Source of the DNA: a virus
Lineage: Duplodnaviria > Heunggongvirae > Uroviricota > Caudoviricetes
Length of the DNA: 6,899 bases
Virus record (IMG/VR): IMGVR_UViG_2537561710_000007
Strand: one strand, 5' to 3'
This document shows positions 1-6,199 of this stretch, in pieces. The stretch's first letter is position 1, and every line of letters begins with the position of its first letter. The translations under genes and the position numbers were made by a program. The notes below the pieces were generated by a model. It had not been told where the DNA came from. It saw only the letters and a list, made by a program, of their open reading frames with translations, and did not search any database.

Positions 1-121
1 CCCAGGCTGAGAAATTTCCTGAACCTTTCTGATCAAGAGCGATGTTAATTTGTTCAATCATTTGGTTAGGAAAGCGGATGTTGCGGGTTGTTGTTCTGCG
101 GGTTCTGTTCTTCGTTGACAT
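1..121 (-). CDS. Partial small prophage protein, YlcI/YnfO-like (DUF3950 family); N-terminal 40 codons only, C-terminus lies beyond the left window edge
   Basis: Minus-strand ATG is the reverse complement of 119-121. Translation MSTKNRTRRTTTRNIRFPNQMIEQINIALDQKGSGNFSAW stays open to position 1. From memory it closely resembles E. coli prophage proteins YlcI/YnfO, which sit next to the terminase small-subunit homologs of cryptic lambdoid prophages. Not in the ORF track because it is truncated. No strong SD (upstream on minus strand: acggggcaacctca). Confidence 0.55.
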   Translation of the reverse strand, partial: MSTKNRTRRTTTRNIRFPNQMIEQINIALDQKGSGNFSAW

Positions 122-284
122 GAGGTTGCCCCGTATTCAGTGTCGCTGATTTGTATTGTCTGAAGTTGTTTTTACGTTAAGTTGATGCAGATCAATTAAT
201 ACGATACCTGCGTCATAATTAATTATTTGACGTGGTTTGATGGCGTAGATGCACGTTGTGACATGTAGATGATAATTATTATCA

Positions 285-300
285 TTTTGCGGGTCCTTTC
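285..300. promoter_or_regulatory. cosQ: Putative cosQ-like element upstream of cosN (needed for packaging termination in lambda)
   Basis: Segment gcgggtcctttccggcgatccgacaggttacg (289-320) nearly matches the last ~30 bp of the lambda right end as I recall it. In lambda, cosQ is a short element a few tens of bp upstream of the nick site. Exact boundaries are not determinable from sequence alone. Confidence 0.35.
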
Positions 301-310
301 CGGCGATCCG

Positions 311-342
311 ACAGGTTACGGGGCGGCGACCTCGCGGGTTTT
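311..342. promoter_or_regulatory. cosN: cosN, the terminase nicking site; 12-nt cohesive-end sequence GGGCGGCGACCT at 321-332
   Basis: Directly seen: acaggttacg|GGGCGGCGACCT|cgcgggttttcgctatttatgaaaattttccgg. This matches the junction of the lambda right end (…gatccgacaggttacg) and left end (gggcggcgacctcgcgggttttcgctatttatgaaaattttccgg…). It lies about 185 bp upstream of the terminase small-subunit start, as in lambda. Confidence 0.85.
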
Positions 343-369
343 CGCTATTTATGAAAATTTTCCGGGATC

Positions 370-380
370 CATGTCCGGTT
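370..380 (-). repeat. R-site-like repeat copy 1 (inverted): catgtccggtt
   Basis: Exact reverse complement of the 11-mer AACCGGACATG found at 428-438 and 458-468. Confidence 0.6.
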
Positions 381-427
381 TCTCTTCAAGTTAACTATAT
401 GAAAAATATAAAAACAGGTCTTCTGTG

Positions 428-438
428 AACCGGACATG
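428..438 (+). repeat. R-site-like repeat copy 2: aaccggacatg
   Basis: Exact 11-mer match to copy 3; 30 bp centre to centre from copy 3. Confidence 0.6.
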
Positions 439-457
439 AACAAAAAACAGACATGTA

Positions 458-468
458 AACCGGACATG
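458..468 (+). repeat. R-site-like repeat copy 3: aaccggacatg, inside an imperfect 18-bp palindrome aaccggacatgaccggtt (458-475)
   Basis: Exact 11-mer match. The 18-mer differs from its own reverse complement at two positions. Confidence 0.6.
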
Positions 469-515
469 ACCGGTTTTGTTGTGATTGTGAGGTGAGAGTT
501 TTTGCGAGGTGAGGA

Positions 516-1025
516 GTGGCTACGCAGACTGAAGTTGCCAGGCATTTAAGTCTGACCGATCGCCAGCTTCGCAGATTGCAGAAATTGCCGGGTGCCCCGA
601 TATCGAATAAGCGAGGGCAACTGGATCTGGATGCCTGGCGCGATTTTTACATATCGTATCTGAGGAGAAGTAAAAACGATGTGCCTGATGGCGATAGCGA
701 AGACGACTATGAGGAGAAATTGCTTATTGCCAGATGGGAACTGACAGCAGAACAGGCTGTTACACAGCAGTTAAAAAATGAGGTGTCAAAAGGAAAACTG
801 ATTGACACCGGGTTCTGTATTTTTGCCCTCAGTAAGCTGGCAATGGCGTTATCCAGTACGCTTGATTCCATCCCTTTATCCATGCAGCGACAGTTTCCTG
901 ATTTAACACCGCGCCATCTTGACCATCTGAAAACCCTTATTGCTAAGGGGGCAAATCAGTGTGCGCGGGCAGGGGATAAATTACCGGATTTACTTGATGA
1001 ATATATCAGAGCAACAACTGAATAA
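516..1025 (+). CDS. nu1: Terminase small subunit, lambda Nu1-like (169 aa), GTG start
   Basis: ORF 516-1025. GTG at 516 is the first start codon after an in-frame stop, preceded by gaggtgaggag. The C-terminal half (TGFCIFALSKLAMALSSTLDSIPLSMQRQFPDLTPRHLDHL…LPDLLDEYI) aligns with the lambda Nu1 C-terminus (TAFCTFVLSRIAGEIASILDGLPLSVQRRFPELENRHVDFL…IPGLLSEYI). The N-terminus (EVARHLSLTDRQLRRL) looks like a helix-turn-helix but has low identity to lambda Nu1. It sits directly downstream of cos and overlaps the large-subunit start. Confidence 0.85.
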   Translation: MATQTEVARHLSLTDRQLRRLQKLPGAPISNKRGQLDLDAWRDFYISYLRRSKNDVPDGDSEDDYEEKLLIARWELTAEQAVTQQLKNEVSKGKLIDTGFCIFALSKLAMALSSTLDSIPLSMQRQFPDLTPRHLDHLKTLIAKGANQCARAGDKLPDLLDEYIRATTE

Positions 1026-2925
1026 TATGATGAGCGCTGTCACAACTGCATTACAGCCCCTGATAAGGGCATTGCCGGTGACGCCAGTTGAATGGGCTGA
1101 TCAAAATTATTATCTGCCTAAAGAATCTTCATATGGTGAGGGCGAATGGAAAACGCTGCCATTCCAGATCGCCATCATGAACAGTATGGGGAATGATCAG
1201 ATCCGCACTGTTAATCTGATTAAATCTGCCCGTGTTGGCTATACAAAGATGTTGCTGGGGGGGGGCGGGTATTTTATTGAGCATAAATCCCGAAACAGTC
1301 TGCTTTTTCAGCCCACGGATTCTGCCGCTGAAGATTTTATGAAGTCTCACGTGGAGGCGACGATTCGGAACGTGCCATGCCTGAAAGACCTTTCCCCATG
1401 GCTGGGTCGTAAACATCGTGACAATACTCTCACGCTGAAACGCTTTTCATCGGGCGTCGGTTTCTGGTGCCTGGGCGGCGCTGCCGCCAAAAACTACCGT
1501 GAAAAATCCGTTGACGTGGTCTGCTATGACGAACTTTCCTCGTTCGAGCCGGATGTCGAAAAAGAGGGCTCGCCAACCCTGCTGGGGGATAAGCGTATTG
1601 AGGGGTCGGTGTGGCCAAAATCCATTCGCGGCTCGACGCCTAAAATCAAAGGCACCTGCCAGATCGAAAAAGCCGCTAACGAGTCGGCGCATTTTATGCG
1701 TTTTTATGTGCCCTGCCCGCACTGTGGGGAGGCGCAGTATCTGAAATTTGGCGATGAGTCCACGCCTTTTGGGCTTAAATGGGAGAAGGACAGCCCTGAA
1801 AGTGTTTTCTACCTCTGTGAACATCATGGCTGCGTGATCCATCAGTCTGAACTGGACCAGAGCAACGGGCGGTGGATCTGTGAAAACACGGGCATGTGGA
1901 CCCGTGACGGTCTGACGTTTTTCAGCGCCCGGGGTGATGAAATTCCGCCGCCGCGCTCCATCATGTTCCATATCTGGACGGCGTACAGTCCGTTCACCAC
2001 CTGGGTACAGATTGTCTATGACTGGCTGGATGCACTGAAAGATCCCAACGGCCTGAAAACCTTTGTGAACACCACGCTGGGCGAGACCTGGGAAGAGGCC
2101 GTGGGCGAAAAACTCGATCACCAGGTACTGATGGATAAGGTGGTGCGTTACACGGCGGCGGTGCCTGCCCGGGTGGTTTATCTGACGGCGGGCATTGACT
2201 CGCAGCGAAACCGTTTTGAGATGTATGTCTGGGGATGGGCTCCGGGAGAGGAAGCCTTTCTGGTGGATAAAATCATCATTATGGGGCGTCCTGATGAGGA
2301 AGAGACGCTGTTACGTGTGGATGCGGCGATCAACAAAAAATACCGCCATGCGGATGGCACCGAAATGACTATTTCCCGTGTCTGCTGGGACACCGGGGGG
2401 ATCGATGGTGAAATTGTTTATCAGAGATCAAAAAAACACGGTGTTTTCCGGGTGCTGCCGGTAAAAGGCGCATCTGTCTATGGCAAGCCGGTGATCACCA
2501 TGCCAAAAACCCGCAATCAGCGGGGCGTGTATCTGTGTGAAGTGGGAACGGACACCGCAAAAGAAATTCTCTATGCCCGTATGAAAGCCGATCCCTCGCC
2601 TGCGGATGAAGCCACGTCGTATGCCATCCGTTTTCCTGATGATCCGGAGATTTTTTCGCAGACAGAGGCGCAGCAACTGGTGGCGGAAGAGCTGGTGGAG
2701 AAGTGGGAAAAAGGAAAGATGCGTCTGCTGTGGGATAACAAAAAGCGGCGTAACGAAGCGCTGGACTGCCTGGTGTATGCCTACGCGGCATTACGTGTGT
2801 CCGTGCAACGCTGGCAGCTTGATCTGGCTGTACTGGCAAAATCCCGGGAAGAAGAGACGACCCGGCCAACCCTGAAAGAACTGGCAGCGAAGCTGTCCGG
2901 AGGAGTGAATGGTTACAGTCGCTGA
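997..2925 (+). CDS. A: Terminase large subunit, lambda gpA-like (642 aa): packaging ATPase and cos endonuclease
   Basis: ATG at 997 gives MNISEQQLNN…, matching the lambda gpA N-terminus (MNISNSQVNRL…). Homology runs the full length (VEWADxNYYLPKES, KSARVGYT Walker-A-like at residues 76-83, VVCYDELSSF Walker-B-like, GSPTLLGDKRIEGSVWPKSIRGSTPK, CPHCGE…YLCEH, WTAYSPFTTWVQIV, FVNTTLGETWE, TAGIDSQ, ICWDTGGID, KKRRNEALDC). The ORF track extends upstream to 940, but that extension has no counterpart in gpA. It overlaps the Nu1 end by 29 nt. Confidence 0.93.
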   Translation: MNISEQQLNNMMSAVTTALQPLIRALPVTPVEWADQNYYLPKESSYGEGEWKTLPFQIAIMNSMGNDQIRTVNLIKSARVGYTKMLLGGGGYFIEHKSRNSLLFQPTDSAAEDFMKSHVEATIRNVPCLKDLSPWLGRKHRDNTLTLKRFSSGVGFWCLGGAAAKNYREKSVDVVCYDELSSFEPDVEKEGSPTLLGDKRIEGSVWPKSIRGSTPKIKGTCQIEKAANESAHFMRFYVPCPHCGEAQYLKFGDESTPFGLKWEKDSPESVFYLCEHHGCVIHQSELDQSNGRWICENTGMWTRDGLTFFSARGDEIPPPRSIMFHIWTAYSPFTTWVQIVYDWLDALKDPNGLKTFVNTTLGETWEEAVGEKLDHQVLMDKVVRYTAAVPARVVYLTAGIDSQRNRFEMYVWGWAPGEEAFLVDKIIIMGRPDEEETLLRVDAAINKKYRHADGTEMTISRVCWDTGGIDGEIVYQRSKKHGVFRVLPVKGASVYGKPVITMPKTRNQRGVYLCEVGTDTAKEILYARMKADPSPADEATSYAIRFPDDPEIFSQTEAQQLVAEELVEKWEKGKMRLLWDNKKRRNEALDCLVYAYAALRVSVQRWQLDLAVLAKSREEETTRPTLKELAAKLSGGVNGYSR

Positions 2926-3115
2926 ACTGCAGGCGCTGCGTCAGGCGCGCCTTGATTTATTAACCGGTAAACGGGTGGTGTCTGTCCAGAAAGATGGTCG
3001 CAGAATTGAATATACGGCGGCTTCTCTGGATGAGCTTAACCGGGCGATCAATGATGCGGAGTCGGTACTGGGGACAACCCGGCGTCGCCGTCGTCCGCTG
3101 GGAGTGAGGTTATGA
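2909..3115 (+). CDS. W: Head-tail joining / head completion protein, lambda gpW-like (68 aa)
   Basis: ATG at 2909 with aggag at 2901-2905. Translation MVTVAELQALRQARLDLLTGKRVVSVQKDGRRIEYTAASLDEL… aligns with lambda gpW (…[24 protein letters not shown]…). Its start overlaps the terminase stop (2923-2925) and its stop overlaps the portal start. Confidence 0.9.
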   Translation: MVTVAELQALRQARLDLLTGKRVVSVQKDGRRIEYTAASLDELNRAINDAESVLGTTRRRRRPLGVRL

Positions 3116-4704
3116 AACGAACGCCTGTCCTGATTGATGTGAACGGCGTTCCGCTTCGTGAGAGTCTCAGCTACAACGGGGGCGGTGCAGGATTTGGCGG
3201 GCAAATGGCGGAGTGGTTGCCACCGGCGCAGAGTGCCGATGCGGCCCTGCTGCCCGCGTTGCGTCTGGGGAATGCCCGGGCAGATGATCTGGTGCGCAAT
3301 AACGGAATAGCGGCCAATGCGGTGGCACTGCATAAGGATCACATTGTCGGGCATATGTTTCTTATCAGCTACCGTCCGAACTGGCGCTGGCTGGGGATGC
3401 GGGAGACCGCAGCAAAAAGCTTTGTCGATGAGGTGGAGGCGGCCTGGTCGGAATACGCCGAAGGGATGTCTGGCGAGATCGACGTGGAAGGAAAACGCAC
3501 GTTCACGGAATTTATCCGTGAAGGTGTGGGCGTTCATGCGTTTAACGGCGAAATCTTTGTGCAGCCGGTCTGGGATACGGAAACCACGCAGTTATTCCGT
3601 ACGCGTTTTAAAGCCGTGAGTCCGAAACGGGTGGACACGCCAGGACACGGTATGGGGAACCGTTTTCTGCGGGCCGGGGTGGAGGTCGATCGATATGGCC
3701 GTGCCGTTGCGTACCATATCTGTGAGGATGATTTTCCTCGCTCCGGGAGTGGACGATGGGAACGGATCCCGCGTGAACTTCCCACCGGGCGTCCGGCCAT
3801 GCTGCATATTTTCGAGCCGGTGGAGGACGGGCAGACCCGTGGGGCCAACCAGTTTTACAGCGTCATGGAACGGCTGAAGATGCTCGATTCCCTGCAGGCA
3901 ACACAGCTTCAGTCGGCCATTGTGAAAGCCATGTATGCAGCGACGATTGAAAGTGACCTTGATACCGAAAAGGCCTTTGAATATATCGCCGGTGCGCCGC
4001 AGGGGCAGAAGGATAATCCGCTTATTAATATTCTGGAGAAGTTCTCCAGCTGGTATGACACGAATAACGTGACGCTGGGTGGTGTCAAAATTCCGCACCT
4101 TTTCCCCGGGGATGATCTGAAACTACAGACTGCGCAGGATTCAGACAATGGATTTTCGGCGCTTGAACAGGCGCTGCTGCGGTATATCGCCGCCGGTCTT
4201 GGCGTTTCCTACGAACAGTTGTCCCGTGATTACTCGAAGGTCAGTTATTCAAGTGCCAGGGCCTCTGCCAATGAGTCGTGGCGCTATTTTATGGGGCGGC
4301 GAAAATTTATTGCGGCCCGGCTGGCCACGCAGATGTTTTCCTACTGGCTGGAAGAGGCACTTCTTCGGGGGATTATCCGTCCGCCACGGGCGCGTTTTGA
4401 TTTTTATCAGGCGCGATCAGCCTGGTCACGGGCAGAGTGGATTGGTGCCGGAAGAATGGCCATTGACGGGCTCAAGGAGGTTCAGGAATCGGTGATGCGC
4501 ATTGAGGCCGGACTGAGCACGTATGAGAAAGAGCCGGCGCTGATGGGCGAGGATTATCAGGACATTTTCCGCCAGCAGGTCAGGGAATCTGCAGAGCGGC
4601 AAAAAGCCGGACTCTCACGTCCGGTGTGGATAGCGCAGGCGTATCAGCAGCAGATAGCGGAGAGTCGCAGGCCGGAAGAGGAGACAACACCCCGTGAGAC
4701 GTAA
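3112..4704 (+). CDS. B: Portal protein, lambda gpB-like (530 aa)
   Basis: ATG at 3112 overlaps the W stop as ATGA (3112-3115). Translation starts MKRTPVLIDVNGVPLRESLSYNGGGAGFGG…, which matches lambda gpB very closely over most of its length as far as I recall. Length is similar (lambda 533 aa) and gene order is conserved. Confidence 0.93.
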   Translation: MKRTPVLIDVNGVPLRESLSYNGGGAGFGGQMAEWLPPAQSADAALLPALRLGNARADDLVRNNGIAANAVALHKDHIVGHMFLISYRPNWRWLGMRETAAKSFVDEVEAAWSEYAEGMSGEIDVEGKRTFTEFIREGVGVHAFNGEIFVQPVWDTETTQLFRTRFKAVSPKRVDTPGHGMGNRFLRAGVEVDRYGRAVAYHICEDDFPRSGSGRWERIPRELPTGRPAMLHIFEPVEDGQTRGANQFYSVMERLKMLDSLQATQLQSAIVKAMYAATIESDLDTEKAFEYIAGAPQGQKDNPLINILEKFSSWYDTNNVTLGGVKIPHLFPGDDLKLQTAQDSDNGFSALEQALLRYIAAGLGVSYEQLSRDYSKVSYSSARASANESWRYFMGRRKFIAARLATQMFSYWLEEALLRGIIRPPRARFDFYQARSAWSRAEWIGAGRMAIDGLKEVQESVMRIEAGLSTYEKEPALMGEDYQDIFRQQVRESAERQKAGLSRPVWIAQAYQQQIAESRRPEEETTPRET

Positions 4705-6199
4705 TCTTTCACACATTATTGCCGCAGCATTCAATGAACCGCTGCTTCTGGAGCCCGCCTATGCGCGGGTTTTCTTTTGCGCGCTCGGGCGCGAGATGGG
4801 GGCAGCAAGTCTTTCGGTACCACAGCAGCAGGTACAGCTTGATGCTCCCGGAATGCTGGCTGAAACGGACGAGTACATGGCCGGAGGTAAACGACCGGCC
4901 CGTGTTTACCGGGTGGTGAACGGTATTGCTGTACTGCCGGTGACCGGCACGCTGGTGCACCGGCTGGGGGGTATGCGGCCATTTTCCGGAATGACAGGCT
5001 ATGACGGCATTGTCGCCTGTCTTCAGCAGGCAATGGCGGATAGCCAGGTGCGGGGCGTACTGCTGGACATTGACAGTCCGGGCGGGCAGGCCGCCGGCGC
5101 GTTTGACTGCGCTGACATGATTTACCGCCTCCGTCAGCAGAAGCCGGTCTGGGCACTGTGCAATGACACGGCCTGTTCTGCAGCCATGCTGCTGGCGTCG
5201 GCCTGCTCCCGACGGCTGGTTACCCAGACATCCCGTATCGGCTCCATTGGCGTGATGATGAGCCATGTCAGCTATGCCGGTCATCTGGCGCAGGCCGGTG
5301 TGGATATCACGCTGATTTACTCAGGGGCGCACAAGGTGGATGGCAATCAGTTTGAAGCCTTACCGGCAGAGGTTCGCCAGAACATGCAGCAGCGCATTGA
5401 TGCGGCGCGCCGGATGTTTGCCGAAAAAGTGGCCATGTTTACCGGTCTGTCTGTTGATGCCGTCACGGGAACAGAGGCCGCCGTTTTTGAAGGTCAGTCC
5501 GGCATTGATGCCGGGCTGGCGGATGAATTAGTCAATGCGTCGGATGCCATCAGTGTGATGGCCACGGCGCTGAACAGTAATGTCAGAGGAGGCACTATGC
5601 CGCAATTAACTGCAACGGAAGCCGCCGCGCAGGAGAACCAGCGAGTGATGGGGATCCTGACATGCCAGGAAGCGAAAGGACGTGAACAGCTTGCCACGAT
5701 GCTGGCAGGACAACAGGGCATGAGCGTTGAACAGGCCCGGGCGATTCTGGCCGCGGCGGCACCGCAGCAGCCGGTGGCATCCACGCAGAGTGAAGCCGAT
5801 CGCATTATGGCGTGTGAAGAAGCGAACGGTCGTGAACAACTGGCGGCAACGCTGGCGGCGATGCCGGAGATGACGGTGGAAAAAGCCCGCCCGATCCTGG
5901 CTGCTTCACCGCAGGCGGATGCCGGACCCTCACTCCGTGATCAGATCATGGCACTGGATGAGGCAAAAGGGGCTGAGGCGCAGGCTGAACAGCTGGCTGC
6001 CTGCCCGGGAATGACTGTGGAGAGCGCCCGGGCTGTGCTGGCTGCGGGATCAGGTAAGGCAGAACCGGTCTCTGCATCCACAACCGCCCTGTTTGAACGC
6101 ATCATGGCGAACCATTCACCGGCTGCGGTACAGGGTGGCGTGCCACAGACGTCAGCAGACGGTGATGCGGACGTGAAAATGCTCATGGCCATGCCATGA
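4694..6199 (+). CDS. C: Head maturation protease / scaffold fusion, lambda gpC-like (S49, ClpP-like serine peptidase domain plus C-terminal scaffold domain), 501 aa, GTG start
   Basis: N-terminal two thirds align with lambda gpC (AFNEPLLLEPAYARVFFCAL, NGIAVLPVTGTLV, SGMTGYDGI, GVLLDIDSPGG, GAFDCAD, KPVWALCND, LLASACSRRLVTQTSRIGSIGVMM, ITLIYSGAHKVDGN, TEAAVFEGQSGIDAGLADELVN). GTG at 4694 overlaps the portal end by 11 nt. The start codon choice is less certain than the gene call. Confidence 0.88.
   Translation: MRRNLSHIIAAAFNEPLLLEPAYARVFFCALGREMGAASLSVPQQQVQLDAPGMLAETDEYMAGGKRPARVYRVVNGIAVLPVTGTLVHRLGGMRPFSGMTGYDGIVACLQQAMADSQVRGVLLDIDSPGGQAAGAFDCADMIYRLRQQKPVWALCNDTACSAAMLLASACSRRLVTQTSRIGSIGVMMSHVSYAGHLAQAGVDITLIYSGAHKVDGNQFEALPAEVRQNMQQRIDAARRMFAEKVAMFTGLSVDAVTGTEAAVFEGQSGIDAGLADELVNASDAISVMATALNSNVRGGTMPQLTATEAAAQENQRVMGILTCQEAKGREQLATMLAGQQGMSVEQARAILAAAAPQQPVASTQSEADRIMACEEANGREQLAATLAAMPEMTVEKARPILAASPQADAGPSLRDQIMALDEAKGAEAQAEQLAACPGMTVESARAVLAAGSGKAEPVSASTTALFERIMANHSPAAVQGGVPQTSADGDADVKMLMAMP
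5597..6199 (+). CDS. nu3: Nested Nu3-like scaffolding protein (200 aa) from an internal in-frame start within the gpC-like gene
   Basis: ATG at 5597 is preceded by a strong SD (agaggagg at 5584-5591, about 5-nt spacing), in frame with the gpC-like ORF. In lambda, Nu3 is likewise encoded in the C frame from an internal start. The product begins MPQLTATEAAAQENQRVMGILTCQEAKGREQ…, comparable to the lambda Nu3 segment …NSRIMGILNCEEAHGREEQ…. Confidence 0.6.
   Translation: MPQLTATEAAAQENQRVMGILTCQEAKGREQLATMLAGQQGMSVEQARAILAAAAPQQPVASTQSEADRIMACEEANGREQLAATLAAMPEMTVEKARPILAASPQADAGPSLRDQIMALDEAKGAEAQAEQLAACPGMTVESARAVLAAGSGKAEPVSASTTALFERIMANHSPAAVQGGVPQTSADGDADVKMLMAMP

Follow-up and report, generated by a model that had tools for sequence, protein, structure and literature searches.

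Three conserved copies of the lambda-type scaffold core motif in the protease/scaffold gene of a phage 21-like prophage

The DNA analysed here, which we call the window, is a stretch of 6,899 nucleotides from a virus record of IMG/VR (IMGVR_UViG_2537561710_000007; Caudoviricetes), and it contains the left end of a lambdoid head operon. The genes there encode, in this order, both terminase subunits (small, then large), a W-like protein, the portal protein, a gpC-like protein of 501 amino acids and a D/shp-like decoration protein, and they are followed by the opening codons of the gene for the major capsid protein. Judged by its sequence, the window represents the head-gene region of a phage 21-like lambdoid prophage of Escherichia coli O157:H7. 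Our subject is the gpC-like gene, in whose C-terminal part the conserved core R-I-M..EAKGRE..LA..PGMTVE.A..ILAA occurs three times. This triple repeat is statistically significant, it corresponds to the Tri boxes annotated in phage 21, it is an expansion compared with lambda and most relatives, and all three copies are conserved; this description we regard as very nearly certain.

The gpC-like gene lies on the plus strand at 4694-6199, starts with GTG and is the homologue of phage 21 gene 5, with an S49 protease fused to a scaffold domain. The protein matches PHROG 53 ("head maturation protease", E=9.7e-228), and its S49 peptidase domain (PF01343, E=2.8e-35, with 122 bits where the cut-off is 24.9) covers residues 146-293, which correspond to plus-strand positions 5129-5572. 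Ser162 and Lys214 align with Ser166 and Lys218 of lambda gpC, and we take these to be the catalytic residues of the protease. The gene follows the portal gene and precedes those for the decoration and major capsid proteins, as expected for lambda-type gpC/Nu3. The first-pass annotation had assigned the repeat to the scaffold (Nu3-like) part of a gpC/Nu3-type gene, and this assignment agrees with the PF01343 domain at the N-terminus and with the position between the portal and decoration genes.

The three tandem units occupy residues 314-358, 367-408 and 414-455 and are encoded on the plus strand at 5633-5767 (unit 1, ENQRVMGILTCQEAKGREQLATMLAGQQGMSVEQARAILAAAAPQ), 5792-5917 (unit 2, EADRIMACEEANGREQLAATLAAMPEMTVEKARPILAASPQA) and 5933-6058 (unit 3, LRDQIMALDEAKGAEAQAEQLAACPGMTVESARAVLAAGSGK). 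Unit 3 reads KGAE instead of the conserved KGRE, and unit 1 shares with the sole unit of lambda extra residues after R-[VI]-M (VMG/IMG). Significance was assessed by Smith-Waterman alignment with BLOSUM62 against 2000 composition-preserving shuffles, and in no pair did any of the 2000 shuffles score as high as the real units (unit 1/unit 2, score 100, z=17.1; unit 1/unit 3, score 83, z=11.7; unit 2/unit 3, score 97, z=14.8). The repeat thus withstands the challenge, raised when it was first noticed, that a statistical detector might not support it. PHROG 8399, a "head scaffolding protein" family of 131 amino acids, also matches three separate stretches of the gpC-like protein. The four stretches originally named, three units and a partial fourth, are all in frame with the open reading frame (ORF) at 4694-6199 and translate as written apart from small slips: positions 5636-5764, given for unit 1, encode 43 amino acids (N315-P357) and not the 44 of the quoted peptide, and positions 5936-6049, given for unit 3, encode 38 (to G452) and not 40. 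The consensus pattern proposed for all three units fits unit 2 only, because unit 1 has six residues rather than three between R-V-M and E-A, and unit 3 starts with Q-I-M.

At the DNA level the copies have diverged, as had been claimed. Cores of 35 amino acids at 5654-5758, 5804-5908 and 5945-6049 align without gaps and are 54-60% identical to each other in protein and 58-66% in DNA, the same codon is used at only 8-9 of the 19-21 identical residues between cores, and Tandem Repeats Finder reported no repeat in 5400-6300. The low codon sharing and the silence of Tandem Repeats Finder indicate that the copies are old and that the repeat is visible in the protein only. Rfam and promoter/terminator scans gave nothing relevant in or near the repeat. 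Minus-strand ORFs that overlap the region (e.g. 5494-5805 and 5941-6192) found no support, and we attribute them to the coding strand being rich in GC and Ala.

All three units also lie within a nested, in-frame ORF on the plus strand at 5597-6199, the homologue of phage 21 gene 6, which would encode a Nu3-like scaffold of 200 amino acids (20.5 kDa, isoelectric point (pI) 4.6, 23% Ala). A Shine-Dalgarno-like GAGGAGG, read from the sequence, lies at 5586-5592 on the plus strand, 4 nucleotides 5' of the internal ATG. Both phage 21 records, M81255.1 and the complete genome OL657228.1 of 2022, annotate the corresponding internal start and ribosome-binding site and name the product gene 6 or scaffolding protein. 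The internal-start residue M302 aligns with M309 of lambda gpC (GGRM/GGTM), and the length contrast first suggested, about 200 amino acids here against 131 in lambda, is borne out by counting from the ATG at 5597 and from lambda M309. If lambda Nu3 and phage 21 gene 6 are a guide, the C-terminal 200 residues would also be made separately as a scaffolding protein. RefSeq places lambda nu3 at 5132-5737 (201 amino acids), which differs from the start at M309 (131 amino acids) that aligns with phage 21 gene 6. Two matches to TTGYN6TTGY are present on the minus strand inside the scaffold coding region (5602-5615 and 5836-5849); the corresponding sites in OL657228.1 are labelled "CII binding site", a putative label given from the pattern alone.

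The triplication itself is already known. Inside gene 6, the GenBank record M81255.1 of phage 21 marks three repeat regions, "Tri1 box" (5542-5645), "Tri box" (5682-5792) and "Tri3 box" (5823-5936), each with the remark "function unknown; putative". With an offset of +122 these correspond to window positions 5664-5767, 5804-5914 and 5945-6058, so that each box falls inside one unit, the Tri1 box overlapping unit 1, the Tri box unit 2 and the Tri3 box unit 3. We found no accessible paper that discusses the Tri boxes, and the paper behind M81255.1 could not be read. The gene described here is 98.6% identical in nucleotides to phage 21 gene 5/6 (gp5 protease, gp6 scaffold) along its full length, and the gene 5 products differ at ten of 501 amino acids, only one of which is inside a unit (A373V).

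How widely the triplication is shared was examined with a three-unit profile in 1.84 billion representative proteins, which gave 457 proteins at E<=0.001. Among the 150 matches listed, 56 proteins have at least 350 amino acids, and 55 of these carry one unit and one carries three; in all 56 of these listed proteins taken together, the last unit ends a median of 52 residues from the C-terminus. The unit profile recovers lambda-like proteins of 439 amino acids with one match at 357-400. In terms of sequence conservation, the unit is thus the conserved core of lambda-type S49 protease-scaffold proteins. The copy number among closer relatives ranges from 1 to 4. Three units were found in 76 of 80 near-identical IMG/VR loci, a set of near-identical prophages which informs on copy-number polymorphism and not on diversity. 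One protein (P0027) has four units, of which units 2-4 are most alike (82-92% mutual identity), another (P0020) has two because of a clean recombination between units 1 and 2, and in-frame partial deletions within unit 2 occur in P0016 and in two IMG/VR loci (L019 and L039). In a phage collection, all 20 records in which at least 80% of the 200-residue query was matched lack a unit-sized gap, and in 19 of them the match is in one piece; these records are E. coli phages and Gifsy-1. The tblastn search of this collection missed lambda, presumably through the low-complexity filter and the shortness of the match, and the yield of a homologous-protein search with the scaffold consisted largely of fragments of E. 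coli proteins that are almost identical. Because most relatives have the motif in single copy and the close ones have 1-4, the triplication is a lineage-specific expansion. An alignment in which lambda and its relatives had the same three units had been named as grounds for withdrawing this view, but lambda has one unit and the relatives mostly one.

The expansion is nevertheless not recent. When the units of E. coli 21-like and Salmonella Gifsy-like proteins are compared, they cluster by position and not by protein, and the nearest neighbour of each unit 1 compared, that of lambda included, is another unit 1. This positional grouping indicates that the triplication is older than the split between the E. 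coli 21-like and Salmonella Gifsy-like phages. In comparison with Gifsy-1, the proportion of nonsynonymous differences (pN) is 0.14 for unit 1, 0.19 for unit 2, 0.26 for unit 3, 0.21 for the protease domain and 0.52 for the C-terminal tail, and synonymous sites are saturated (pS about 0.7). Since the values of the units are near that of the protease at saturated synonymous divergence, all three units are under comparable purifying selection, and the tail is fast-evolving.

This tail, residues 456-501 (6059-6196, plus strand), is the least conserved part of the protein and contains ALFERIMANH at 6086-6115. Part of this stretch (FERIMAN, 6092-6115) had been proposed as a partial fourth unit, and here the result is divided: the similarity is not significant (z of about -0.2 against units 2 and 3 and -1.2 against unit 1), but the stretch is in register, because a 15-nucleotide motif recurs at 5797, 5938 and 6094 with spacings of 141 and 156 nucleotides. 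The lambda equivalent of FERIMAN is LDRLMQG, about 50 amino acids past the start of its single unit. ALFERIMANH is a possible relic of another unit, of which it would be the first helix. Of the ten amino acid differences from phage 21 gp5, four lie close together in the tail, shortly past unit 3 (residues 465-484, window 6086-6145), namely L466M, R469H, I470F and P484A, and FERIMAN here corresponds to FEHFMAN in phage 21.

Structure prediction was carried out with AlphaFold for the whole scaffold and for a single unit. For the scaffold of 200 residues, with an alignment of 24 sequences, the predicted local distance difference test score (pLDDT) was 75-80 in the units and low in the linkers and tail, and the predicted template modelling score (pTM) was 0.26, which indicates that the units have no fixed mutual arrangement in the model. 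The single unit, with an alignment of 32 sequences, gave a pLDDT of 81.5, a pTM of 0.58 and three helices with a short turn at the conserved EAKG. Each unit is therefore predicted to be a small, generic three-helix bundle, and the scaffold would resemble beads on a string, with flexible linkers rich in Pro, Gln and Ala. A PDB sequence search with the 200-residue scaffold gave a chance match only (E=1.3), and the whole-scaffold model, compared with the PDB by Foldseek, had no match at E<=0.001.

The window is 100% identical over 1-6829 to an E. coli O157:H7 prophage, e.g. that of strain EDL933, and 96.0% identical over 1079-6829 to the head operon of phage 21. The surrounding prophage differs from phage 21: the first 1078 nucleotides are unmatched, and the capsid gene is interrupted here. 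Those 1078 nucleotides, which include the small terminase gene (516-1025), have no DNA match to phage 21 or lambda, except for lambda bases 1-45, from the left cohesive end, which are found at window 321-365 with 100% identity. This indicates that the packaging-specificity region is a mosaic in comparison with the remainder of the head operon. The final bases of the window, about 79 (6821-6899), match the chromosomal btuC gene (vitamin B12 ABC permease) at 98.7% and not the major capsid gene. As the identity to the O157:H7 prophage ends at 6829, the window end is a junction between about 190 nucleotides of the 5' part of the capsid gene and btuC. In strain CDC#03-98, the sole genome for which both positions were listed, btuC lies about 290 kb away from the prophage, and the junction may have arisen by rearrangement, by deletion or as an artefact of assembly. 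In EDL933 (NZ_CP008957.1), the major capsid gene of the 100%-identical prophage is annotated as a pseudogene (locus 9641-9904, continuing past window 6829) whose C-terminus is missing, with tail genes directly after it. The prophage that carries this scaffold gene is thus probably defective, with its major capsid gene interrupted.

According to yeast two-hybrid work and a compilation of the literature, the partners of lambda Nu3 are Nu3 itself, C, the major capsid protein E and the portal protein B (PMC3224144). These interactions, and the fact that the unit with its charged EAKGRE turn is the sole strongly conserved element of Nu3-type scaffolds, suggest that the unit may be a contact module of the scaffold, which would attach to the major capsid protein on its inner face, to another scaffold chain or to both, and which may fold only on binding. 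Three such units on flexible linkers would make the scaffold multivalent, and because gpC has the same C-terminus, they would also carry the protease into the prohead. We propose this functional reading, comprising contact module, multivalent scaffold and protease delivery, only tentatively, and would put its chance somewhat below even. The explanation taken as a whole, a phage 21-like S49 protease/scaffold gene with three old copies of the core that would serve as contact modules, is the one that we favour with moderate confidence. A more specific form, in which the unit is a capsid-recognition element that folds on binding and in which valency and reach of the scaffold depend on the number of copies (one in lambda, two to four among natural relatives), is speculative, as is the earlier suggestion that repeat number affects assembly. 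If the specific form were true, the natural series of 1-4 copies in otherwise homologous T=7 heads would be a test bed for the relation of scaffold valency to nucleation rate, fidelity and protease loading in procapsid assembly.

Three observations weigh against the contact-module reading. According to its title, the report of Medina et al. 2011 (J Mol Biol 412:723) finds purified lambda gpNu3 to be intrinsically disordered; if so, the predicted bundle may be absent in the free protein and form only on binding of a partner. Natural variants without all or part of unit 2 exist, so that three units may not be strictly required. Finally, because the prophage is probably defective, the scaffold may be without function in this one genome.

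The alternative that survives best, which we consider possible but doubtful, is that the units are modules for self-association of the scaffold into dimers or oligomers, and that the variable C-terminal tail contacts the capsid protein. Scaffolds of several other phages, e.g. P22, bind the coat protein through their extreme C-terminus. The tail also evolves faster than the units (amino acid identity to Gifsy-1 of 0.28 compared with 0.60-0.79), as would be expected if it co-evolved with its own capsid protein, and a Nu3-Nu3 interaction has been reported for lambda (PMC3224144). However, the same two-hybrid study also gives a Nu3-E interaction, whose contact region is unmapped, and three such modules in tandem would tend to polymerise.

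It is unlikely that the extra copies are largely redundant, with one unit doing the work, as in lambda, and units 2 and 3 being mainly a spacer or a tolerated duplication. Most family members do have a single unit, the conserved Arg of KGRE is lost in unit 3, and the unit 1/unit 2 fusion (P0020) and the partial unit 2 deletions (P0016, L019, L039) are natural alleles. Moreover, the major capsid proteins of phage 21 and lambda are 62% identical and of equal length, so that no difference in the shell protein goes with the repeat expansion. Against this, the motif is kept in all three units from E. coli to Salmonella phages despite saturated synonymous divergence, the pN values of the units resemble that of the protease domain, and positional orthology indicates that the units have been maintained for long. 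None of the 20 well-matched phage-collection records has a unit-sized gap, and the deletion alleles may stem from decaying prophages. Least probable by far is that the repeat is an Ala/Gln/Glu-rich low-complexity by-product, which the 23% Ala of the region could suggest but whose origin in low complexity is refuted, or a helix-hairpin-helix DNA-binding motif, for which there is a weak Pfam HHH match over unit 3 (E=0.018-0.093) that reaches only 13-15 bits against a cut-off of 24 and comes with no specific structural match.

As a discovery the repeat carries little weight, since the triplication has stood in the GenBank record of phage 21 for decades as "function unknown". We can now describe the Tri boxes as additional copies of the one motif by which lambda-type scaffold domains are defined, and this work adds a family-wide picture of copy number, the positional orthology of the units, the constraint on each of them and a predicted fold. 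On the evidence of sequence comparison, the motif is present in 1-4 copies in enterobacterial prophages, and the constraint on its three copies predates the separation of E. coli and Salmonella phage lineages. The natural copy-number variants make the function of the Nu3 core motif experimentally approachable.

Lambda gpC/gpNu3 (NC_001416, gene C at 4418-5737) has the same gene order, the S49 domain, the core motif and a remnant after it. It differs in having a single unit, with a core of 35 amino acids from residue 364 that is 54-60% identical to each of the three cores here, and in having a low-complexity segment of about 50 amino acids between M309 and the unit, which is absent here. The first-pass annotation had given one unit and a remnant for lambda, and aligning the gpC-like protein with lambda gpC displays exactly these; with one unit and the same remnant in lambda, the three units here represent an expansion. 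The gpC homologue of Salmonella phage Gifsy-1 (STM2605.Gifsy1, 498 amino acids) is closer: it has three units in the same order, positionally orthologous to those here and with an amino acid identity of 0.60-0.79, a protease domain that is about 70% identical, and a tail that is only 28% identical and ends differently. A more distant comparison is with the scaffolding protein of phage P22, whose coat-binding helix-turn-helix is likewise a small helical module in the C-terminal part, although it is a functional analogue only, with no sequence match or significant fold match to the units. The P22 scaffold has one coat-binding domain, which is basic and lies at the very C-terminus. The units described here differ from that domain: with a pI of 4.6-6.4 they range from acidic to almost neutral, they are repeated, and a tail of 46 amino acids comes after them. 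Nevertheless, the P22-type domain offers a plausible analogy for how a unit might dock on a capsid protein of the HK97 fold.

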